From Alphaproteobacteria bacterium (lineage in GTDB: Bacteria; Pseudomonadota; Alphaproteobacteria; Bin95): 64,000 bases of DNA. The notes below the pieces were generated by a model. That model saw only the letters and a program-made list of their open reading frames with translations. It ran no database searches and had not been told where the DNA came from. The position numbers and the translations under genes were made by a program. This document shows positions 42,414-52,729 of the stretch, in pieces. Each line of letters starts with the position of its first letter. The stretch's first letter is position 1. Location of the stretch: contig CBFIAF010000004.1 of NCBI GenBank assembly GCA_965660545.1, forward strand, positions 76,655 to 140,654. The letters run 5' to 3'.

Positions 42414-43334
42414 ATGGTAAAGTCTATAATACAATTTATATTTGCAGCCGCCCTCGCGCTGACCGCGGTTATCGCGCAGCCCGCTACTGCGGCAAATCTT
42501 GGCCCCAAAACCTGCCAAGAATGCCATCGTGCTGAGTACGAGGTGTGGAAAGGCTCCGCGCACTTCAAGGCCTATCGTGGCGCGCACAAGCACAAAAATG
42601 CAAAAGCGATTGCGGCGGCTTCCGGCACTGGCAAATCCATGCGGAAAAACAAAACCTGCATGACTTGTCATTACACGGTAATTGGCAGCAAGGCGAGAGC
42701 GAAAGCTGGCCCGTCCTGCGAGAGCTGCCACGGCGGCGCTTCCAAGTGGGTAAAAATCCATAATGACCTTGGCGCTGGCGTGAAATCATCTGCGGATGAG
42801 TCTGCTGCCCACAAAAAGTCACGCCTGGCTGCAGCACAAAAAGCCGGCATGATCCATTCATCAATGGTTTACGACATCGCTGAGAACTGTAATTCCTGCC
42901 ACACCATGCAGAAGATTGACCCTGCAATGGCCGGTAAGCTGATCGATGCAGGCCATCCAATCAATGGTAGTTATGAGCTGGTGAAGTATAGCCAGGGTCA
43001 AGTTCGCCATCGCTTCTATCCGCCGAACATCACCGAGAACCAGAAAATGAACAAGGCGGAACTATCCCGCATGTTCTTGACCGGCCACGCTGCTGGTCTC
43101 GTCTATGCGACGAAGGTTCTGGAAAGTGCTGATAATGCCAAGTACAAAGCAGCTATGGAACAACGCGTCGTTGATGCAAAGAAAGCAATCGGCGCTGCTA
43201 AGGGTTCTATACCGGCTGCGGGCGCACTTTTGTCCTCACCGACGGAAGCAAACGCCAGGAAGTTCGTCGCGGCGTTGCAGGGCAAGGACCTGTCCGGTGC
43301 TGTCGGCGGCATGTTGCCCTCTGAGTACAAATAG
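42414..43334 (+). CDS. Periplasmic tetraheme cytochrome c (cytochrome c554-like CxxCH...W..S.H type)
   Basis: Signal peptide (MVKSIIQFIFAAALALTAVIAQPATAA). Four CxxCH motifs (CQECH, CMTCH, CESCH, CNSCH). First gene of the 7-gene operon. Confidence 0.85.
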   Translation: MVKSIIQFIFAAALALTAVIAQPATAANLGPKTCQECHRAEYEVWKGSAHFKAYRGAHKHKNAKAIAAASGTGKSMRKNKTCMTCHYTVIGSKARAKAGPSCESCHGGASKWVKIHNDLGAGVKSSADESAAHKKSRLAAAQKAGMIHSSMVYDIAENCNSCHTMQKIDPAMAGKLIDAGHPINGSYELVKYSQGQVRHRFYPPNITENQKMNKAELSRMFLTGHAAGLVYATKVLESADNAKYKAAMEQRVVDAKKAIGAAKGSIPAAGALLSSPTEANARKFVAALQGKDLSGAVGGMLPSEYK

Positions 43335-43458
43335 GGCGATACTATTCGCGAATCCTGAGGCGGTAATTAATGGATGTGTGCTGGGGTGGGCATGCCTTCA
43401 TTGATACTAGCCAAAGGCCCGCGGTTTTCCGCATCACGCGCTCCAGGGGGATGGCGCT

Positions 43459-45081
43459 TTGGCCTTAGCGACAAGATTAGCGCGTCCGCAACGTTGGGAC
43501 CGTCCGTTCGATCCAGGTATGACTGCGGCAGATTTGCAACACCTAAAACTTGATCCGGTTGTCGCCGCAATTGATGCAGACGCGTTCCCAGGGACTATTC
43601 CACTTGACGGCATTCTAGCTAACGATTCGCGGGTCATTCGTTACAAAGCCGGTGAAATCGTCGTTCGCGAAGGCGATTACGGTAATTCCGCATTTCTTAT
43701 TATGTCCGGCGCTTGCGACGTTGTCGTAAATCCGCCGCTGACTGATGCTCAGCTTGGCCGTCAAACTGAAGCGCCAGCTAGCATTGCGCGCGCGATTTCA
43801 CAACTCTGGAAGCGCACTGTCGTGCCGGAAGTTCGTGACGTCAGCCGCTATGGCGATATCGCCGTCACAGAGACAGATCATCAGGCCGTTTTTCTGCAAG
43901 ATTATGGCATTGTGCTTGGCGGGCGCAGCTTGCCGCGCCTTGGCGCGCAGCAAATGTTTGGTGAGTTGGCCGCTCTGGGCCGTACCCCCCGCGCGGCAAG
44001 CGTCGTTTGTGTCGAAGACGCAGAGGTGCTTGAGATTCGCTGGCAGGGCCTGCGGGAGCTTCGTCGGTTTGATGCCGGCTGGCGCCGCCAGATCGACACC
44101 AACTACCGCGCCAATGCGCTGATCTCGCACCTGCAGGACACGCTGCTGTTCGATGGTCTGTCCGACGACGCGCTCCAATCCATCGCAGACGCGACATTGT
44201 TTGAAACTTATGGCTCCTTTGACTGGAGTTCTTCGTTCCAGCGCGCCGAAAGCGATGCGCGCCTGGATACAGAACCCGTCATTGCGCGTGAAGGCGAATA
44301 TCCAGATGGCCTCTTGCTTATCCGTGCAGGATTTGGCCGCGTTTCTGTGCGCCAAGGGGCAGCAGAACGCACACTGACTTACTTATCTGCTGGCGATCAT
44401 TTCGGCTTGAGCGAGCTTTATGCTGGCTGCAAGGGCGGTGGATCACCGATGGAAGCAACACTCCGCGCGGTCGGTTACGTGGACGCCCTACGTGTGCCAA
44501 CTAAGGTACTCGAAGAGCATGTCTTCCCGCGCATGAACACAGCGCCGGATAGCTTCCTACAGTTTGCAGCCCGCCCCCTTGCAGATGATTCACTGCAGGA
44601 ATGGGCAATCGAAGAGCGTTTCATCAACGGCACCATGGCGATGCTGATTGATTTGGATAGATGCGTGCGCTGTGACGATTGCGTGCGGGCCTGTGCGTCC
44701 ACCCACGGCGGCAACCCTCGTTTTGTCCGCCACGGCAAGATCAATGACCATTGGATGGTCGCCAATGCCTGTATGCATTGCTCTGACCCTGTCTGTATGA
44801 TCGGCTGCCCAACGGGCGCTATTCACCGGACGCAGGCGGGCGGCTCTGTTGTCATCAATGACGACAGCTGCATCGGGTGCGGTACATGCGCCAATTCCTG
44901 CCCTTATAATAATATCCGCCTCGTCGAAATTCGGGACCTGTCTGGAGCCCCGGTTCAGGACGAAGCAACCGGGCAGCCCATTCGTAAGGCGACAAAATGT
45001 GATCTTTGCGCAGGTATTCCTGGTGGCCCCGCCTGTGAGCGCGCCTGCCCGCACGGCGCTCTCCAGCGCGTTGATTTTTAG
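43459..45081 (+). CDS. Cytoplasmic protein with two cyclic-nucleotide-binding (CAP-effector-like) domains fused to a four-cluster [4Fe-4S] ferredoxin module (HybA/NrfC/PsrB-like)
   Basis: N-terminal two-thirds carry two cNMP-binding-like domains (FLIMSGACDVV; GELAALGRTPRAASVVCVEDAEVLEI). C-terminal 150 aa has four Cys clusters: CVRCDDCVRAC, CMHCSDPVCMIGCP, CIGCGTCANSCP, CDLCAGIPGGPACERACP. No signal/TAT peptide and no HTH. Confidence 0.75.
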   Translation: MALATRLARPQRWDRPFDPGMTAADLQHLKLDPVVAAIDADAFPGTIPLDGILANDSRVIRYKAGEIVVREGDYGNSAFLIMSGACDVVVNPPLTDAQLGRQTEAPASIARAISQLWKRTVVPEVRDVSRYGDIAVTETDHQAVFLQDYGIVLGGRSLPRLGAQQMFGELAALGRTPRAASVVCVEDAEVLEIRWQGLRELRRFDAGWRRQIDTNYRANALISHLQDTLLFDGLSDDALQSIADATLFETYGSFDWSSSFQRAESDARLDTEPVIAREGEYPDGLLLIRAGFGRVSVRQGAAERTLTYLSAGDHFGLSELYAGCKGGGSPMEATLRAVGYVDALRVPTKVLEEHVFPRMNTAPDSFLQFAARPLADDSLQEWAIEERFINGTMAMLIDLDRCVRCDDCVRACASTHGGNPRFVRHGKINDHWMVANACMHCSDPVCMIGCPTGAIHRTQAGGSVVINDDSCIGCGTCANSCPYNNIRLVEIRDLSGAPVQDEATGQPIRKATKCDLCAGIPGGPACERACPHGALQRVDF

Positions 45082-45092
45082 GGGCACCAAGA

Positions 45093-45923
45093 ATGATCGT
45101 CCGAACAGTCAACAGCGTCCGGCCCTTCGGCTACACCCTGGCCGCCATCGGTGCCGCTGTGATCGCCAGTCTCGCTTATTATTCGCATCAGGAACACCTG
45201 AAGCTCAGTGACGCCACCTTCGTCACGGGTTGGGTATTGCTGACAGCCATGGTCTCCCTAGCGCTTTTCAACATCCGCAAGCGTCTTTCCATGATGTCAA
45301 TGGGTAGGGCAGCTTATTGGCTTGCGCTGCACGTTGTCGTTGGCCTATTCGCTGTCGGAATGTTCATTGTCCACACAGGTGGCATGTGGGCCACAGGCTT
45401 CTATGAGCAAGTGATGGCTGGATTGTTTTGGGCGACGGCCCTGTCAGGCGTCTTCGGCTGGCTATATCAGCGCGCGATGCCAAGGCGCCTTACACGCATT
45501 GGCTATGAAGTCGTTTATGAACGAATCCCGGCTGAAATTGCCGCCCTTCGCGAGGAAGCTGAAGAAGCCACCCTTGAAGGCGTAGGTGCTAGCGGCGAAC
45601 CAACCCTCGGCCGCTTCTATTCAGAAACCATGCAGGACTTCTTCCGTCGGCCGCGCTTTATGTTAAGCCACCTCTTTGGTGCAGGTGCAGCCCAACAGTG
45701 GGTTGACCTCCGGTTCCGCACGGTGCGCGGGCTAGTTGGCTCACAAGAAGAACCCGCCCTTGCCCGACTTGAAGCTGCCGCAAGACGCAAACTCTCTATA
45801 GACGCTCATTACGCCATTCAACGCTCCTTGAAGCTTTGGGTGGCGGTCCACGTCGTGCTATCTGCAGCGATGTTAACGCTTGCAGTATGGCACCTCATCC
45901 TGGTGCATGTGTACGCCCGATGA
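45093..45923 (+). CDS. Polytopic inner-membrane protein with conserved intramembrane histidines (candidate b-type heme/quinone-interacting subunit)
   Basis: 276 aa with about 5 predicted TM helices. His pairs sit inside helices (HVVVGLFAVGMFIVH; VHVVLSAAMLTLAVWHLILVH), with a roughly 120 aa soluble loop. The gene is 11 nt after the FeS gene and its stop overlaps the next start (ATGA). Confidence 0.55.
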   Translation: MIVRTVNSVRPFGYTLAAIGAAVIASLAYYSHQEHLKLSDATFVTGWVLLTAMVSLALFNIRKRLSMMSMGRAAYWLALHVVVGLFAVGMFIVHTGGMWATGFYEQVMAGLFWATALSGVFGWLYQRAMPRRLTRIGYEVVYERIPAEIAALREEAEEATLEGVGASGEPTLGRFYSETMQDFFRRPRFMLSHLFGAGAAQQWVDLRFRTVRGLVGSQEEPALARLEAAARRKLSIDAHYAIQRSLKLWVAVHVVLSAAMLTLAVWHLILVHVYAR

Positions 45924-48028
45924 CTGAAGACAAAAATCGCTTCGCCCACGATCGATCACCCTATGAGCGCCCGAATTTTCCTTTCCGGTGCGGCAGGGAG
46001 GCAGCCTTTGGCAAACCGTGCCCACGCGGCCCGAGCGCTGGCGGTAATTGCCAGGGGATCTCGGACTGCACGCCATTCCGGACACGCAAGATCGTAACAA
46101 ACACTGAAACCGGTGAAGAAACAGAGACCCAGCGTTGGGAATGCCGCCGCCCGCAACATGCTGGCGGCCCCTGTGCTGAAGGTCCACGGCCAGACGGCAC
46201 ATGCTCTTGCATCCATCCGCCATGTGCACCTAAGCTGACTATCCGGCGTCAGCGCGGCCGCTGGGCAATGCTTGCAGTTGCCGCAATGGTAGCCATGGTA
46301 TTGGCTTTTGTCGGCGCTGCTGGCGGTATCATTGGCCCTAAACCAGATGCAAACGGCATTCTTAGTCATGTTGGCTGGCCGAGTTCAGTCAACCCTGGTC
46401 CGCTTTCCGGCAAGCATGAACAATTCACGGCCAAAGACGGCTGTATTTCATGCCATGTCGGCCATTCAGACACATTAACAGGCTGGGCTGGTGCAATATT
46501 CGAGCGCACCACTATTTCTGAGTCCTGCGTCTCGTGCCACAGCTTCGGAGAGAAACAAGCTAATTCCGACCCTAAAGCCCAATCGCCAATGGCATTCGCC
46601 GCCCATAACACGAAATTCCCGAACCGCACGAATGCCCCAACAGCATCGTGCACGGGCTGCCACACGGAACATAAAGGTGTGGGTGCATCGATCACGCCGA
46701 TGGATGATGGCCAGTGCTCTGCATGCCACACCACCAAGTTCGACAGTTTCTCCAAATCCCATCCGGCGTTTGGGACAAATTTCCCGCATGAAAGTGCACG
46801 AACCATCAAGTTTCAGCATGGCAAGCACCTAGAAACGCATTTTGTAGACCAGCGCTATATCGATAGAGCGCCAAAGAATGGCTGCATCTCCTGCCATACA
46901 GACCAAGTTGATGGGCGTTTGCTACCGGGCAGTTTTGAGAATGGCTGTGCCGCATGTCATGAACTTGCGATTAAAGAACAGGGAATGGTCGTCTTCGGCC
47001 TTCCTGAATTGAGTGACCCTGAATTGACTGCAGAAGCCCGTGACTCATGCGGCTTTCCTGTGCCACAGCGTGAGCCGGCCCGTGCGACCCTTGAAGCCCT
47101 GGCTGAGGCACTTCCGACAATGCAGGCGCTTGGTGAAAACGCCGAGTCTGGCAACCTGAATGGCGTCATGACTGCAGTTGAGGCCTTAAGTGAGGCCCAG
47201 ACCGCGATTGCCGAAGCGCGGGATGAGCTTGCAGAGGCTGTCGACATGTCAGAAGCCGTTTCCCTTGATTCGCTCTCCCCGATCGCAGCATTCCTTCTGG
47301 CTGTTCCGGCTGATGATGCAGATGAATATAGCGAAGCAGCAGCAGCCTTCCTGATTGCCGCTGCCGCCGACGGGCAGGTCCCGCTTGCCGAAGCAATCGA
47401 CGCTAAGGGTGGTGATGCAACCGCGCTGCTGGCAGGCCTTTCACCCGAGTTAGTGACGGAAGTTACTTGCGCTTGGGCCGCAAACACGGAATATGAACCT
47501 AAGCAAGACCCTGAACCGGGCGCTGGCTGGGCTGCGCAAGAGCTGCAAGTGTCTTATCTGCCAACAGGCCATGCGGATGCTGTGACCAAGGGATGGATTG
47601 CACTTGGTCTAGCAAATCGTGGCAGTCAAGATGAAGGTGTCGAAGCTTTTGCTGACCTCGTGCTCAGTGCGGGCGACGGGCCGGGTCGTTGCTTTAAGTG
47701 TCACGTCGCACCAGCGGCAGATGCTGAAAAACAAGTCGTACAATGGGCTATTCCACGCGCAGATGTTCGCCCATTCACAACTTTCAATCATGATCCGCAC
47801 TTAAATGTACTAGATCAGGGAGCCGGATGTGCGACATGCCATAGTCAGTTGGAGCCGGGCGCAACCTTGGCTGATGGGCAATCTCGCCCAGGGCCGCATG
47901 CAAACGACTTCAAGCCGATCGATCAAGCAACTTGCAAAGATTGTCACCGCCCGGGCGCGGTTCGGCAGGATTGCGCACTTTGCCACCGCTACCATAGCAA
48001 TCCATCCATCCGGAAACGGACGTTGTGA
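45920..48028 (+). CDS. Membrane-anchored multiheme cytochrome c (10 CxxCH) with Cys-rich N-terminal region
   Basis: Ten CxxCH motifs arranged 6+4, split by a roughly 200 aa Ala/Glu-rich low-complexity linker. One hydrophobic helix (WAMLAVAAMVAMVLAFVGAAGG) sits after a roughly 110 aa N-terminal region containing 9 Cys (C-x10-C-x8-C-x5-C ... C-x9-C-x7-C-x-C-x4-C). The start at 45920 is inferred from the ATGA overlap. Confidence 0.75.
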   Translation: MTEDKNRFAHDRSPYERPNFPFRCGREAAFGKPCPRGPSAGGNCQGISDCTPFRTRKIVTNTETGEETETQRWECRRPQHAGGPCAEGPRPDGTCSCIHPPCAPKLTIRRQRGRWAMLAVAAMVAMVLAFVGAAGGIIGPKPDANGILSHVGWPSSVNPGPLSGKHEQFTAKDGCISCHVGHSDTLTGWAGAIFERTTISESCVSCHSFGEKQANSDPKAQSPMAFAAHNTKFPNRTNAPTASCTGCHTEHKGVGASITPMDDGQCSACHTTKFDSFSKSHPAFGTNFPHESARTIKFQHGKHLETHFVDQRYIDRAPKNGCISCHTDQVDGRLLPGSFENGCAACHELAIKEQGMVVFGLPELSDPELTAEARDSCGFPVPQREPARATLEALAEALPTMQALGENAESGNLNGVMTAVEALSEAQTAIAEARDELAEAVDMSEAVSLDSLSPIAAFLLAVPADDADEYSEAAAAFLIAAAADGQVPLAEAIDAKGGDATALLAGLSPELVTEVTCAWAANTEYEPKQDPEPGAGWAAQELQVSYLPTGHADAVTKGWIALGLANRGSQDEGVEAFADLVLSAGDGPGRCFKCHVAPAADAEKQVVQWAIPRADVRPFTTFNHDPHLNVLDQGAGCATCHSQLEPGATLADGQSRPGPHANDFKPIDQATCKDCHRPGAVRQDCALCHRYHSNPSIRKRTL

Positions 48029-48036
48029 GGATTAAG

Positions 48037-49809
48037 ATGATGGAAGAGAGAAAGATGGAATTTGGAATCCGCCCCTTGGGGCGCCGCCTTCTAATTGCTG
48101 GCGCTTTCGCCGCTGCGGTATTTGGCATGCCAATTACAGCAGTAGCAGCCGAAAAAGAAGATCCGCATGCGGATCTTATGGCCGAGGAAAGCTACCCAAC
48201 AGCCGCCCAATGTGGTGCCTGTCACACCCAGGTCTATCGCGAATGGGCGTCGTCTAACCACGCATACGCATCGATTTCGCCGATGTTCCACAAGTTCGAG
48301 CAGAAGATTAATGATCTCTCGAGCGGCACCATCCGAGGCTTCTGCGTACGGTGCCATCAACAGATCGGCACGCAGCTCAATGAACGCCGCGACCTCCCGC
48401 TTTGGGAACGCAATCAGATTTCACGCGAAGGCATTTCCTGCGTGACGTGCCACCGCGTCCGTGAAGAATTCGGCAAGGTCAACGGCGAACGCCGGATCAT
48501 CCCAGGCCAGGTCTACACGCCTGTCAGCGGTGTTGGCGATGGCAAAAAGCTAAAGGAAATCATTGAGAACCGTAGCGAATATCGTGTTGCGGTTAGCGAA
48601 AAGGAACGCGGGGCCCAGATTCACACGGGCGTTTACAAGTTCCCACAGATTTCTAAGTCAGAATTCTGTGTGTCTTGTCACCAGGTCGCTGTGAACCCAG
48701 GCATCAAGCTTGAAGTTGTTTGGGAGCAGTATAGAAACTCCCCAGCAGCCGCTAATGGCGTCACGTGTCAGGATTGCCATATGGGCAAAGTGCCAGGCCG
48801 GGCTGACGGTTATGCAACCGGGCCCGTCGCAATCGTTAATGGTGAAGAAATCAATCCGGACCGCAGGCACTCCAACCATGCCTTCTACGGCCCTGGCTAC
48901 CCAATTGCTCATCCTGGCATCTTCCCACACAACCCAGATGCAGCTGAAATTCCCATCGAAGACTGGCTGGAATTCGACTACCGCTCTAAGTGGGGCTCGG
49001 AAGAATTTGAAGAGAAAGTCGCCAACGGCGAGATTGATGAAGACAGCCTGCCAGACGCATGGTCCGATTCAGTTGACCGTGAGGAAGCTTGGGAAATCAT
49101 CCAGGAGAACGTCGGACTTCTGGAAGAAAAACGCGACCTTCGCCGTCAAGTGATGGAAAATGGTTCTCGTCTTGATGGCCCGTTCTTCGCTAGCGCGCCA
49201 AAACAAGGGTCCTCCCTCAGCTTTGACATCAAACTGACCAACACAGATGACGGCCATAACCTGCCGTCTGGTTCTCTCGGTGCCCAGCCTGAAATCTGGC
49301 TGAATGTTGCTGTCGTATCGCCCAGCGGCAAGACAGTATGGGAATCTGGTTACGTTGATGGGAATGGCGATATGGCCGACATTCACTCCCTAGAGGTAAG
49401 AGCGGGCAAAATCGAATATGATGACCAGCTTTTCAACTTGCAAACCAAGTTTCTATTCACGAACGTTAAGGGGACTGAACGCGAATGGTATCTGCCAATA
49501 AATATCGATATCGATCAGCTTCCATTCATCCGCCCAGCAAACGTGCCGACGACTATCCTAAACCATGCGCCATTTATCCGCATGGAAGGTCGTTCGATTC
49601 CACCACTTGGGTTTCGCAACGCTAGCTACACCGTGCCGGCAGATGCGTTGACGGAAAAAGGTACTTACAAAATGGCCGTCCGACTGCGGAGCCGCGCCGA
49701 ACCGATCTACTTCATGCGGTTCGTCGATTCGACGCCGGAAATGGAAGAAGCCATGAACAGCTGGATGCTTGATTTCCATTCCTACACCGTGGAATTTGAA
49801 GTCAACTGA
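48037..49809 (+). CDS. Secreted pentaheme cytochrome c with large heme-free C-terminal domain
   Basis: Signal peptide. Five CxxCH (CGACH, CVRCH, CVTCH, CVSCH, CQDCH), all in the first roughly 280 aa. A roughly 300 aa C-terminal domain has no heme motif. GAGGA RBS before the ATG at 48037; the ORF track starts at a GTG at 48025 that overlaps the upstream stop. Confidence 0.8.
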   Translation: MMEERKMEFGIRPLGRRLLIAGAFAAAVFGMPITAVAAEKEDPHADLMAEESYPTAAQCGACHTQVYREWASSNHAYASISPMFHKFEQKINDLSSGTIRGFCVRCHQQIGTQLNERRDLPLWERNQISREGISCVTCHRVREEFGKVNGERRIIPGQVYTPVSGVGDGKKLKEIIENRSEYRVAVSEKERGAQIHTGVYKFPQISKSEFCVSCHQVAVNPGIKLEVVWEQYRNSPAAANGVTCQDCHMGKVPGRADGYATGPVAIVNGEEINPDRRHSNHAFYGPGYPIAHPGIFPHNPDAAEIPIEDWLEFDYRSKWGSEEFEEKVANGEIDEDSLPDAWSDSVDREEAWEIIQENVGLLEEKRDLRRQVMENGSRLDGPFFASAPKQGSSLSFDIKLTNTDDGHNLPSGSLGAQPEIWLNVAVVSPSGKTVWESGYVDGNGDMADIHSLEVRAGKIEYDDQLFNLQTKFLFTNVKGTEREWYLPINIDIDQLPFIRPANVPTTILNHAPFIRMEGRSIPPLGFRNASYTVPADALTEKGTYKMAVRLRSRAEPIYFMRFVDSTPEMEEAMNSWMLDFHSYTVEFEVN

Positions 49810-49888
49810 TTGGGGATCGCCTGCGGCGCGCCAAGCTGCCAAAGAGAACAGTTAAGGCGCGCCGCAGGCGAACGAGGAGAATAGAGGC

Positions 49889-51415
49889 GTGACACCAAGT
49901 TTTCTAAAGATGACCGGGCGCATTGCAATGGCGACAGCGGCTTCCGCACTGGCGATGATGGTCGCCACTGGCGGCCCTGCATATGCGGCGAGTGCCCATG
50001 ACGACAGTCCGCGCAAGATGGATCCTAATGTCAAACCGTCAGAGCATGACTCTGATGTCTTCAAGGCGGATCCAACATACGAAGAGAAAGTGTATGACGC
50101 TGAGCGCCAACTCGAAATCTATGGCGGCAAGCGCAACATTGAGGAGCCACGCCCGATCCTAGAAGTTGGTCGTCCGCAATATGTCGAAGGTCCTTTCGAC
50201 GAAGGCATTAATGTAATTGGCGAAAAGAACCTTTTGTTCCCATCGTTTTCAGTTTTTGGTGACGTCCGTACAGCGGTAGCCGCGAATGACGTTGGCGGTG
50301 ATGTTGTGTACGAGTTTGCCAACCGCCTGAACCTGGACCTCGACCTTAAGCTAACCGCCACAGAACGTGTTCACGGCTTCTTCCGCCCGATCGACGAGAA
50401 CGGTAAGTTCATAGGATATCGGACCGGCGATAAGAGGGGCAATAATGGCCGTGACGGTAAGCTCGATGCAAACCCAGAAACATTATTCTTTGAAGGTGAT
50501 ATTGGTGCCATATATGGCGGGTTAGCAGACGAATACACAACCTTTGACCTGCCAATCGCATTTGGTTTGACACCCTTCGTCATGCAGAATGGGCTTTGGG
50601 TTGATGAGGCCTTTGTTGGGGGCGGCATATCACTCGCTGCAATGAACAGTCGTACACTTGATATCACAAACATGGACATCACCTTCTTTGGTGGTTTCGA
50701 TGAAATCGATTCACCGGCATTCGTTGGCCAGGACGGTGTCCTAGATACAGACGACGTATCAATTTATGCCGTAGCCGCTTTCGTCGATTGGTTCGAAGGC
50801 TATTCTGAGTTCGGTATCGGCTATGTCGACGGAAGAGAGCAACTCAACGATATTGACTATTTCAACTTTACCGGTGCCTATACGTCACGGTATGGCGGCT
50901 GGCTCTCCAACTCCGTCAGGCTATTTGGCGCTGTGGGTCAAGATACAAACGGCCGTGCTAAAACGGCCGATGGCTTTGCCTTACTCATAGAAAACTCTTT
51001 GATCACGTCCAAGCCAGATGTCTTTGTTCCCTATTTCAATGGCTGGGTTGGTATCGATAAGCCGCAATCCCTCGCACGCAACAACGGCGGGCTATTGAAG
51101 AACACCGGCATCACGTTCGAGAACGACGGCATGACCTCTTTTCCGACGCTGGATGATACCGCACAAGACACATTCGGTGGTGCCATCGGCGTCAACTATC
51201 TGTTCAGTCTAGACCAGCAGCTCGTGGTTGAAGCGTCTACGGTTCAAAGACTTGATACTGCCTCACCTGCTCAGGGTGGTCAGTATGCTGTTGGCTTCCG
51301 CTATCAGATCCCAGTCACGAACCGGGTTATCCTGCGTACAGACGGTATCTACGGCATTCGGGAAAGCCAGGAAGACATTGGCGGCGTTCGCTTCGAGCTG
51401 CGCGTTAAATTCTAA
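49889..51415 (+). CDS. Outer-membrane beta-barrel protein (porin-like; candidate cytochrome conduit)
   Basis: Signal peptide (MTGRIAMATAASALAMMVATGGPAYAASA), alternating amphipathic beta-strand pattern, Gly/aromatic-rich, and a C-terminal ...RFELRVKF ending in Phe, the OMP sorting signature. Confidence 0.65.
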   Translation: MTPSFLKMTGRIAMATAASALAMMVATGGPAYAASAHDDSPRKMDPNVKPSEHDSDVFKADPTYEEKVYDAERQLEIYGGKRNIEEPRPILEVGRPQYVEGPFDEGINVIGEKNLLFPSFSVFGDVRTAVAANDVGGDVVYEFANRLNLDLDLKLTATERVHGFFRPIDENGKFIGYRTGDKRGNNGRDGKLDANPETLFFEGDIGAIYGGLADEYTTFDLPIAFGLTPFVMQNGLWVDEAFVGGGISLAAMNSRTLDITNMDITFFGGFDEIDSPAFVGQDGVLDTDDVSIYAVAAFVDWFEGYSEFGIGYVDGREQLNDIDYFNFTGAYTSRYGGWLSNSVRLFGAVGQDTNGRAKTADGFALLIENSLITSKPDVFVPYFNGWVGIDKPQSLARNNGGLLKNTGITFENDGMTSFPTLDDTAQDTFGGAIGVNYLFSLDQQLVVEASTVQRLDTASPAQGGQYAVGFRYQIPVTNRVILRTDGIYGIRESQEDIGGVRFELRVKF

Positions 51416-51463
51416 TCACGATCGTATTGCTAGCCAAAATGGCACCGAGATTGGGGAAGAACG

Positions 51464-52729
51464 ATGGATAATTTGGCGAACTATGTCGCCATAGGTGCAG
51501 CCGGGCTGCTGGGCCTTTACATTTTGTCTCTGCTGATGGGCTCGCTCCGTCAGCAGAGCCAAATGGCGCGGCATTATGAGGAACAATCACAGCTATTCCG
51601 CGCACGTGCGGAAGGCTTGCAGAGGATCCGTGCTGAAGAGATCGAGAAAACCCAAAACACCTGGGCAGGCCTTCGGAAATTCAAAGTTGCCCGTAAGATC
51701 AATGAGATCACAGATTGCCACTCCATCTACCTTGAACCTCATGACGGTCGGCCCCTACCGCCGTTTGAGCCAGGCCAGTTTCTAACGTTCAAGTTTGCTG
51801 TGCCCGATCAGCCTAGCGACGTAATACGTTGCTACTCCCTGTCAGACGCACCTGGCCGTGACTACTACAGGATTACCGTCAAGAAGGTGCCACCGCCCCG
51901 TGGCAAGCCTGAAATAGCACCTGGTGTGTCCTCCACCTTCGTAAATGAAGTCTTGAATGAAGGCGATATAATTGATGTACGTGCGCCCAATGGCGGCTTC
52001 TATCTGAAGCGTGAACATAAACGTCCAGTCGTCCTAATCGGTGGCGGCGTTGGCATCACACCAGTGCTCAGCATGCTGAACTACATTGTGGAGCATGAGC
52101 CGCAGCGGGAAACATGGTTCTTCTTTGGGGCGCCCAATAAAGCCGGCCATATTATGAAGGATCACCTAGCCCAAATTGCTGCGGAAAATCCTAATATCCG
52201 CATGAACATTTGCTACAGCGACCCATCAGATGACGATGTGTTTGGGGAAGATTACGACCATCACGCCCGCGTTTCCGTAGAGCTGTTCAAGAAAGTCCTG
52301 CCTTCTAACAATTTCGAATATTACTTCTGCGGCCCACCGCCAATGATGAATGCGCTTGATGCGGACCTCAAAGCTTGGGGCGTACCAGAAGCCGATATTC
52401 ACTCTGAAGGCTTTGGCCCTGCTTCAGTTAAGAAGCCCAAACCACCTGCTGTAGAAGGTGCTGCAGAATTAGCATCTGTATCGGTAACGTTTGCTAAATC
52501 TGGCAAGACATTGGATTGGACGCCTGCTGCTGGAACAATTCTTGATTTGGCGGAAGCAAACGGTGTTGATGTTGCTTCGGGTTGCCGGGCCGGCAGCTGT
52601 GGTACTTGCCTCACCGCCGTTATAGAAGGCGATGTGGATTACGCAACGCCGCCAGACGCTCCGATCGAAAATGGCTCTTGCCTCGCGTGTGTCGGCACCC
52701 CGAAAGGGCCAATCAAGATAAACGCCTAA
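51464..52729 (+). CDS. Membrane-anchored FNR-family flavoprotein reductase with C-terminal plant-type [2Fe-2S] ferredoxin domain
   Basis: N-terminal TM helix (VAIGAAGLLGLYILSLLMGS), FAD motif RCYSLSD, NAD(P) motif GGGVGITP, C-terminal CRAGSCGTCL...CLACV 2Fe-2S motif. Last gene of the operon. Confidence 0.75.
   Translation: MDNLANYVAIGAAGLLGLYILSLLMGSLRQQSQMARHYEEQSQLFRARAEGLQRIRAEEIEKTQNTWAGLRKFKVARKINEITDCHSIYLEPHDGRPLPPFEPGQFLTFKFAVPDQPSDVIRCYSLSDAPGRDYYRITVKKVPPPRGKPEIAPGVSSTFVNEVLNEGDIIDVRAPNGGFYLKREHKRPVVLIGGGVGITPVLSMLNYIVEHEPQRETWFFFGAPNKAGHIMKDHLAQIAAENPNIRMNICYSDPSDDDVFGEDYDHHARVSVELFKKVLPSNNFEYYFCGPPPMMNALDADLKAWGVPEADIHSEGFGPASVKKPKPPAVEGAAELASVSVTFAKSGKTLDWTPAAGTILDLAEANGVDVASGCRAGSCGTCLTAVIEGDVDYATPPDAPIENGSCLACVGTPKGPIKINA

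Follow-up and report, generated by a model that had tools for sequence, protein, structure and literature searches.

PtdF, a five-helix membrane protein of the ptd cluster and predicted diheme b-type cytochrome between an iron-sulfur protein and a decaheme cytochrome c

In the window, a stretch of 64,000 nucleotides (nt) from a contig of an Alphaproteobacteria bacterium (CBFIAF010000004.1), seven genes form a block in the order D-E-F-G-A-B-C at 42414-52729, with unrelated metabolic genes on its flanks. This report concerns the third of them, ptdF, an open reading frame (ORF) that starts with ATG, stops with TGA and encodes 276 amino acids (aa). Its product is the only polytopic inner-membrane subunit of the cluster, and I argue that it is probably a diheme b-type cytochrome that leads electrons across the membrane, from the iron-sulfur (FeS) protein PtdE to the decaheme cytochrome c PtdG. 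A preliminary description, made from the window sequence alone, had placed the gene between an FeS gene and a multiheme gene, and the same order is observed in the window and in all other loci examined. The 11-nt spacing upstream and the ATGA overlap downstream that it reported are both borne out by the coordinates: the stop codon TAG of ptdE occupies 45079-45081, with the ATG of ptdF 11 nt downstream, and the ATG of ptdG at 45920 overlaps the TGA of ptdF at 45921-45923. In other loci, the E/F and F/G junctions are either overlapping or separated by gaps of 23 nt at most.

The names of the genes are taken from the ptdABCDEFG operon of the Alphaproteobacteria UBA11136 from marine oxygen-deficient zones (ODZ), which was named in a 2024 preprint (bioRxiv 10.1101/2023.11.21.568154). 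The window gene is identified as the ptdF of this operon by its match to the seven-part description, as the supplements of the preprint give no PtdF sequences or accessions. Both sets consist of a pentaheme cytochrome, a porin, an FAD/NAD(P) oxidoreductase, a tetraheme cytochrome, a protein with cyclic nucleoside monophosphate (cNMP) and 4Fe-4S domains, a transmembrane (TM) protein and a decaheme cytochrome, and in both of them E, F and G are adjacent, while the order in the window is a circular permutation of the published one. The preprint counts two FeS clusters in PtdE, whereas four invariant motifs are found here, and it contains no analysis of the ligands or the topology of PtdF, which it labels 'ferric reductase-like'. 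Literature searches for other names of the cluster returned nothing beyond this preprint.

A word-indexed search with PtdF gave 67 unnamed, close homologues, and an exhaustive profile search gave 3150 representatives of clusters at 50% identity with E<=0.001, including 497 with E<=1e-30. Conservation was assessed in 150-151 of these representatives, taken from the matches listed in the profile search; among the 150 matches listed, the homologues measure 227-341 aa, mostly about 270 aa. Four histidines, H80, H94, H253 and H267, are invariant in an alignment of 33 sequences reaching 30% identity, and they are likewise conserved in every representative (150/150, or 151/151), even where identity falls to about 23% and in several phyla. 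The spacings between H80 and H94 in TM3 and between H253 and H267 in TM5 are exactly 14 residues in all 151 sequences. With a mean column identity of 27%, the only other invariant columns in the 150 representatives are G119, G122 and W249, a pattern that is far beyond chance.

The histidines proposed as heme ligands in the preliminary description are therefore largely the conserved ones. Its pair H80/H94, 14 residues apart within TM3, is invariant, and so are H253 and H267 of its TM5 cluster; the third member of that cluster, given as H273, is actually H272 (residue 273 is Val) and is conserved in only 28% of the representatives. Among the other histidines, H193 is conserved in 75% of the representatives, and H32, H35 and H239 are variable. 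The label 'His-rich' does not hold, as nine histidines in 276 residues are not notable. Near-invariant positions of the family are G46, R62, K63, W76 (148/150), G84 (142/150), P100, G102, E143, P146 and Y176, and further K233, D237, L246, L250 and P255, and E105, R127 and K247 are shared by some 80% of the members. The family consensus in TM5 reads W-L-F-x-H, with V250 in the PtdF of the window. When the profiles of TM3 and TM5 are compared, they align in register on a common W-L-x-x-H-x13-H motif, and this repeat in the sequence suggests that PtdF consists of two related half-units.

As a separate observation, three nearly universal prolines of the family are missing from the PtdF of the window, which has S69, A100 and V255 in their place (codons at 45297-45299, 45390-45392 and 45855-45857), and also from its close relatives. 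In the family, these prolines are found in 125 (P69), 145 (P100) and 135 (P255) of the 150 representatives.

A structure model of PtdF that was built with AlphaFold2 (AF2) on 33 homologues reached a mean predicted local distance difference test score (pLDDT) of 90.4 and a predicted template modelling score (pTM) of 0.80. It shows long helices at residues 10-36, 42-64, 73-95, 103-136 and 220-275, and a helical soluble segment (residues ~126-245, with helices at 142-167, 171-185, 190-195 and 199-212) separates the last two. Hydropathy over 151 homologues likewise shows five hydrophobic segments, in agreement with the approximately five TM helices of the preliminary description. Positive charges are unevenly distributed in these homologues: on one side of the membrane, the mean number of Lys and Arg is 3.1 for the N-terminus, 3.3 for loop 2 and 18.3 for the domain of about 120 aa, and on the other side it is 0.5 for loop 1, 0.8 for loop 3 and 0.3 for the C-terminus. 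Because of this enrichment and depletion, the N-terminus and the large domain are assigned to the cytoplasm and the C-terminus to the periplasm, where the loops have on average only 6 and 9 residues and the C-terminus ends 4 residues past TM5. From this N-in/C-out topology it follows that H80 and H253 lie at one depth of the membrane and H94 and H267 at the other, and each His pair has one member near the cytoplasmic and one near the periplasmic face. The cytoplasmic domain, which has no Pfam match, contains the conserved residues E143, P146, Y176, K233 and D237, and on average 18 Lys and Arg and 17 Asp and Glu.

In searches against Pfam, weak matches among the 150 members recur only to heme-binding membrane families: DUF4405 in 50 of them (E<=0.1), Ni_hydr_CYTB and Ferric_reduct in 15 each, and Cytochrom_C_asm in 10. 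One homologue passes the DUF4405 threshold with 28.5 bits, TM2-3 and TM5 both being matched, and for several relatives an assignment to PF14358 was already precomputed. Another homologue has its TM2-3 aligned to the start of Ferric_reduct, yet all matches to this family are sub-threshold (best E 5e-5, 23.8 bits versus 28), and the PtdF of the window has no match to Ferric_reduct (PF01794) at all. According to a published description, DUF4405 corresponds to one half of a cytochrome b, with two TM helices and two histidines (PMC5898192). Searches of PDB by sequence, with single sequences and with profiles, gave no meaningful match, and a Foldseek comparison of the PtdF model with PDB returned nothing below E 0.4. 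Informative fusions were sought among the longer members, which show only start-site extensions or small insertions. On these similarities, PtdF is placed within the broad range of diheme cytochrome-b-like proteins, outside all curated families of this range.

Several other identities were considered and rejected. A non-heme transporter is rejected, as the recurrent weak matches are to heme-binding families only. An NrfD/PsrC-type subunit has 8-10 TM helices, and PtdF has five and no NrfD match in Pfam or NCBIfam; the preliminary description had already set PtdF apart from this type. A cytochrome b of the NarI/HdrE/DsrM type (PF02665) is dismissed because there is no profile match and PtdF is N-in/C-out, the topology of NarI being the opposite. 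A prokaryotic cytochrome b561 (PF01292), which had been suggested beside DUF4405 as a family to search, does not fit either, with no more than 15 weak Ni_hydr_CYTB matches among the 150 members, a negative hhalign comparison with HyaC and CybB, and five TM helices instead of four.

Related loci were collected with an alignment of 16 PtdF sequences. Within the limits of each contig, the seven-gene set surrounds all PtdF homologues examined, except in a Pseudomonadota metagenome-assembled genome (MAG; L013, 5413-12449), where the order is D-E-F-G-C and neither ptdA nor ptdB stands between the last two genes; the inner-membrane module may thus occur on its own, with no outer-membrane part next to it. 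The gene order is permuted among the loci, and E, F and G are always adjacent and usually overlapping. The cluster is found in Alphaproteobacteria, Verrucomicrobiota, Planctomycetota (Phycisphaerales) and Burkholderiales. The relatives with 94-97% identity to the PtdF of the window come from MAGs of uncultured Alphaproteobacteria, and a distant branch includes Luteolibacter algae (Verrucomicrobiota; assembly GCA_042683045.1), which carries the cluster as well. In the preprint, the hosts are marine or saline Alpha- and Gammaproteobacteria, Nitrospirales and Planctomycetes, from saline habitats only, and Alphaproteobacteria in the largest of the marine oxygen-deficient zones are reported to transcribe ptdAB highly (bioRxiv 10.1101/2023.11.21.568154). 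Beyond the hosts of the preprint, ptd was observed here (loci L017, L022, L023 and L024) in a Xanthobacteraceae MAG from Lake Baikal, in Luteolibacter algae and many other Verrucomicrobiota, in a Burkholderiales MAG and in a protein from a soil metagenome. In two distant loci, genes for System II cytochrome c maturation adjoin the cluster, namely ResB and CcsA in L003 (1-2894) and ResB in L022 (20198-20834).

The features of the locus are collected in Table 1.

Table 1. Coordinates in the window of the ptd genes, their junctions and the segments of PtdF and PtdG.
Feature	Position	Strand	Remarks
ptdD, periplasmic tetraheme cytochrome, c554-like	42414..43334	+	4 CXXCH; Cytochrome_C554 3e-13
ptdE, cytoplasmic; cNMP-binding domains, four invariant 4-Cys ferredoxin motifs	43459..45081	+	Pfam cNMP_binding 2e-24, Fer4_11
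Spacer of 11 nt, ptdE stop to ptdF start	45082..45092	+	
ptdF, five-TM membrane protein of 276 aa, predicted diheme b-type cytochrome	45093..45923	+	ORF, homologues, AF2
TM1 (residues 10-36), extra helix, poorly conserved	45120..45200	+	
TM2 (residues 42-64), near-invariant G46; R62 and K63 at cytoplasmic end	45216..45284	+	
TM3 (residues 73-95), motif W76-L-x-x-H80-x13-H94; His codons 45330-45332 and 45372-45374	45309..45377	+	
TM4, membrane part (residues 103-125), E105 at periplasmic end; invariant G119, G122	45399..45467	+	
Cytoplasmic all-helical domain of ~120 aa between TM4 and TM5, proposed docking platform	45468..45827	+	AF2
TM5 (residues 246-275), motif W249-x3-H253-x13-H267; His codons 45849-45851 and 45891-45893	45828..45917	+	
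ATGA overlap of ptdF stop and ptdG start	45920..45923	+	
ptdG, decaheme cytochrome c, 10 CXXCH, one TM anchor (residues ~115-140)	45920..48028	+	
PtdG N-terminal Cys segment (residues 1-104)	45920-46231	+	precedes TM anchor; 2x(C-x9-C-x9-C-x5/6-C)
ptdA, pentaheme cytochrome c	48025..49809	+	5 CXXCH; Pfam and NCBIfam multiheme matches
ptdB, putative outer-membrane porin, 508 aa, C-terminal Phe, no Pfam match	49889..51415	+	porin per preprint
ptdC, FNR-type FAD/NAD(P)-binding reductase with N-terminal hydrophobic anchor and C-terminal 2Fe-2S ferredoxin domain	51464..52729	+	

PtdE, which has no signal peptide, contains 16 invariant cysteines in four four-Cys motifs within residues 402-540 (44662-45081), and from these motifs it is predicted to be a wire of four [4Fe-4S] clusters of the DmsB/NrfC type. 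The first of its cNMP domains has an invariant phosphate-binding cassette, FGE.AALGR.PR.A. Three loci link the cluster to signalling: two of them show a forkhead-associated (FHA) domain inserted in PtdE (L006, 5481-7634, and L007, 3031-5184), and in the third, two genes for CHASE2-guanylate/adenylate cyclases lie directly upstream of ptdE (L003, 3661-8133). PtdC matches NAD_binding_1 (1e-20) and Fer2 (4e-12), and in NCBIfam the reductase part of flavohemoprotein (8e-74); the hydrophobic stretch at its N-terminus (residues ~8-26; 51464-51560) would tether it to the membrane next to PtdE and PtdF. A scan for promoters and terminators across the cluster gave counts at the level of chance. A small GC-rich hairpin followed by ATTTTT is located at 45054-45073, in the 3' end of ptdE and ahead of the ribosome-binding region of ptdF, and its significance is doubtful in view of that scan.

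The N-terminus of PtdG (residues 1-140 with the TM helix; 45920-46339) carries two repeats with eight invariant cysteines, C24-x9-C34-x9-C44-x5-C50 and C75-x9-C85-x9-C95-x6-C102. This segment is conserved in 16 loci and still recognisable in Luteolibacter, it has no Pfam match, and a word-index search with the N-terminal 145 aa gave 2 matches. As it stands before the single TM helix and is followed by a basic stretch ahead of that helix, it is predicted to lie on the cytoplasmic side, where it could form a Zn or FeS module that touches PtdE or PtdF. An AF2 model of the N-terminus, made from a shallow alignment, had a pLDDT of 49.8 and is unusable except for the TM helix.

The best explanation of the observations is, with fair though not high confidence, that PtdF is a diheme b-type electron wire through the membrane, from the FeS clusters of PtdE to the decaheme cytochrome PtdG, in which heme is predicted to be bound by the four invariant histidines. 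Such a wire of bis-His b-type hemes between the cytoplasmic FeS protein and the periplasmic c-type hemes had been put forward in the preliminary description, and it is supported because four of its candidate histidines are conserved and PtdF falls in no non-heme transporter family; the topology and the synteny point in the same direction. TM2-TM5 would form a four-helix bundle, in which H80 of TM3 and H253 of TM5 would ligate one heme on the cytoplasmic side. A second heme, on the periplasmic side and about 21 A from the first (14 residues x 1.5 A), would be held by H94 and H267. The small residues G46, G119 and G122 on the other two helices and G84 on TM3 could leave space for the porphyrins, and R62, K63, R127 and K247 at the cytoplasmic interface could take the heme propionates. 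PtdE would dock with its four-[4Fe-4S] module on the cytoplasmic helical domain of about 120 aa, electrons would pass from the periplasmic heme to the membrane-anchored PtdG, and the TM helix and the cytoplasmic Cys-rich N-terminus of PtdG probably pack against PtdF and PtdE.

Electrons would in this way travel from NAD(P)H to PtdC (FAD, 2Fe-2S), PtdE (four FeS clusters), PtdF (two hemes b) and PtdG (ten hemes c), and further to PtdD/PtdA and the PtdB porin, and the step at PtdE might be gated or tuned by a cyclic nucleotide. The Ptd system would then resemble NOX/ferric reductase or MsrQ-Fre, but divided over several subunits, and it would bypass the quinone pool. The outward, NAD(P)H-driven direction is the most likely one and at the same time the least certain step; it is proposed because PtdC is of the FNR type, whose members normally lead electrons away from NAD(P)H, and because an outward flow of electrons runs with the membrane potential.

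Several points weigh against this explanation. The PtdF of the window reaches no threshold in Pfam or NCBIfam, its best match being DUF4405 with 15.6 bits versus a cut-off of 26.7, and heme in this family is deduced from sequence, topology and synteny. An alignment by hhalign of the family profile with the single sequences of MsrQ, HyaC and CybB from E. coli gave nothing significant, which leaves remote homology possible, as single-sequence templates are insensitive. On the periplasmic side, the 150 members share no conserved basic residues for the propionates of the outer heme, and the acidic E105, conserved where TM4 reaches the periplasm, could belong to a quinol site. Finally, the preprint describes the function as 'completely unknown' (bioRxiv 10.1101/2023.11.21.568154).

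The residue E105 leads to an alternative that I consider unlikely, namely that PtdF is a quinone-coupled cytochrome b (of the FdnI/HyaC/CybB/NarI type, or like CbcB of Geobacter) that oxidises quinol, or reduces quinone, beside one of its hemes and so connects the quinone pool to the Ptd multihemes, with PtdE and PtdC as a second input or output. Position 105 is Glu in 121 and Asp in 13 of the 150 members, and together with P100 (145/150) it lies at the periplasmic edge of the membrane; apart from the histidines, however, there is no conserved polar cluster within the membrane. Weak Ni_hydr_CYTB matches in 15 of the 150 members would agree with a relation to such cytochromes, but the arrangement of two plus two histidines on two helices is the pattern of the ferric reductase domain and of cytochrome b, and not the three-helix ligation of FdnI and HyaC, where the heme ligands come from three helices (PDB 1KQF, 4GD3). 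Among the other proteins of the cluster, the Pfam and NCBIfam scans point to none that might interact with quinone, for instance of the NapC/NirT or NrfD type, and MsrQ is said to have an unexpected ubiquinone cofactor, according to the title of a recent paper (PMC12525009). Yet with quinol as the donor, there would be no need for the dedicated NAD(P)H-type reductase or the four-cluster FeS wire that the cluster encodes.

More improbable still is that the wire of PtdF runs inward, from an extracellular or periplasmic donor via PtdB/A/D/G and PtdF to PtdE and PtdC, reducing NAD(P)+ or another cytoplasmic acceptor. Porin-cytochrome systems are bidirectional, working both ways in metal oxidisers and reducers, but an inward movement of electrons opposes the membrane potential, and the reduction of NAD(P)+ requires a donor of very low potential. 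Reductases with an FNR and a 2Fe-2S part (BenC, MmoC and the Hmp reductase among them) are as a rule oxidising NAD(P)H, which also argues against an inward flow, even though ptd genes are reported in nitrite oxidisers and in ODZ bacteria that use sulfide or formate (bioRxiv 10.1101/2023.11.21.568154).

There is little to recommend a PtdF free of heme, as a scaffold or anchor for PtdE and PtdG with histidines that are structural or bind Fe, Cu or Zn, and I regard it as very improbable. Neither a family threshold nor a solved homologue links PtdF to heme, but the paired 14-residue spacing of the histidines, their matched depths, the glycines on neighbouring helices and the weak matches to heme families are the signature of a bis-His bundle, and without cofactors in PtdF there would be no electron path from PtdE to PtdG. 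A role in the handling of heme or the maturation of the 19 c-type hemes of the cluster, like that of CcsA/CcmF (PF01578), is scarcely credible, for despite weak Cytochrom_C_asm matches in 10 of 150 members and the ResB/CcsA genes adjoining the cluster in L003 and L022, PtdF is always paired with an FeS gene and not with maturation genes, and it has no WWD domain, as its periplasmic loops of 6-9 residues are too short.

With PtdF as a diheme wire, the wider picture would be that PtdC, E, F and G form a respiratory or redox module of a type not characterised before, a counterpart of NADPH oxidase/ferric reductase in several subunits, which is gated by cyclic nucleotide, works without quinone and exports electrons from cytoplasmic NAD(P)H via the four-cluster FeS wire and the five-helix diheme protein into a decaheme/porin conduit in at least four bacterial phyla; taken as a whole, I hold this only tentatively and rather doubt it. 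If true, PtdF would be the first of a new family of diheme cytochromes in the membrane, and PtdG, with its cytoplasmic module of two times four cysteines, would bring a new type of anchor or redox site to the c-type cytochromes. Extracellular or periplasmic multiheme cytochromes are in most known cases reached from the cytoplasm by way of the quinone pool (as with CymA, ImcH, CbcL and NrfH). The Ptd cluster looks as if an NAD(P)H-type reductase were wired to its cytochromes directly through the inner membrane, and for the crossing step PtdF is the sole candidate. Its family counts 3150 cluster representatives, and yet it has neither a Pfam model nor a solved structure. Already known are the name of PtdF and its bioinformatic description in the preprint, and with the label quoted above the interpretation itself is not new either. 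New in this study are the ligand set and topology of PtdF, the W-L-x-x-H-x13-H repeat and the five-helix architecture with its cytoplasmic insert, the four-cluster PtdE and the cytoplasmic Cys module of PtdG, and a much wider phylogenetic and habitat range of ptd, in which Luteolibacter algae is a named carrier and a candidate experimental host. The ligand histidines and topology of PtdF, the synteny across phyla and the named carrier species make the system directly testable.

Among known systems, the ferric reductase domain (PF01794: NOX, FRE, STEAP, MsrQ/YedZ) is defined by six TM helices with bis-His motifs on TM3 and TM5, and in MsrQ-Fre the reductase is encoded separately (PMC5676040). 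PtdF likewise has its bis-His motifs on TM3 and TM5, but it has five TM helices instead of six, a helical insert of 120 aa between TM4 and TM5, and no member that reaches the Pfam threshold, and the proposed donor is a four-cluster FeS protein and not a flavin, with a decaheme cytochrome c as the acceptor. DUF4405/cytochrome b561 (PF14358, PF01292) is the commonest weak match (50/150), with the profile on TM2-3 and TM5, and PtdF would fit two DUF4405-like halves, given the description of that domain as a half with two helices and two histidines; the PtdF of the window, however, stays below its threshold. Proteins of the FdnI type have four TM helices and a quinone site. The Tmc, Hmc and DsrMKJOP complexes of sulfate reducers share the logic of the wiring, in which a multiheme cytochrome c in the periplasm is joined through a cytochrome b in the membrane to an FeS protein in the cytoplasm, and the C-terminus of PtdG has weak matches to TmcA and HmcA in NCBIfam. 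In these complexes, the b subunit is NarI/HdrE-like and the cytoplasmic subunit HdrD-like with CCG motifs, whereas PtdF has no match to the NarI family, and they are without the cNMP domain, the FNR-type reductase and the porin of the Ptd system. Compared with the cytochrome b of bc1/b6f, PtdF is much smaller, without a detectable sequence relationship or the sites of the Q cycle.

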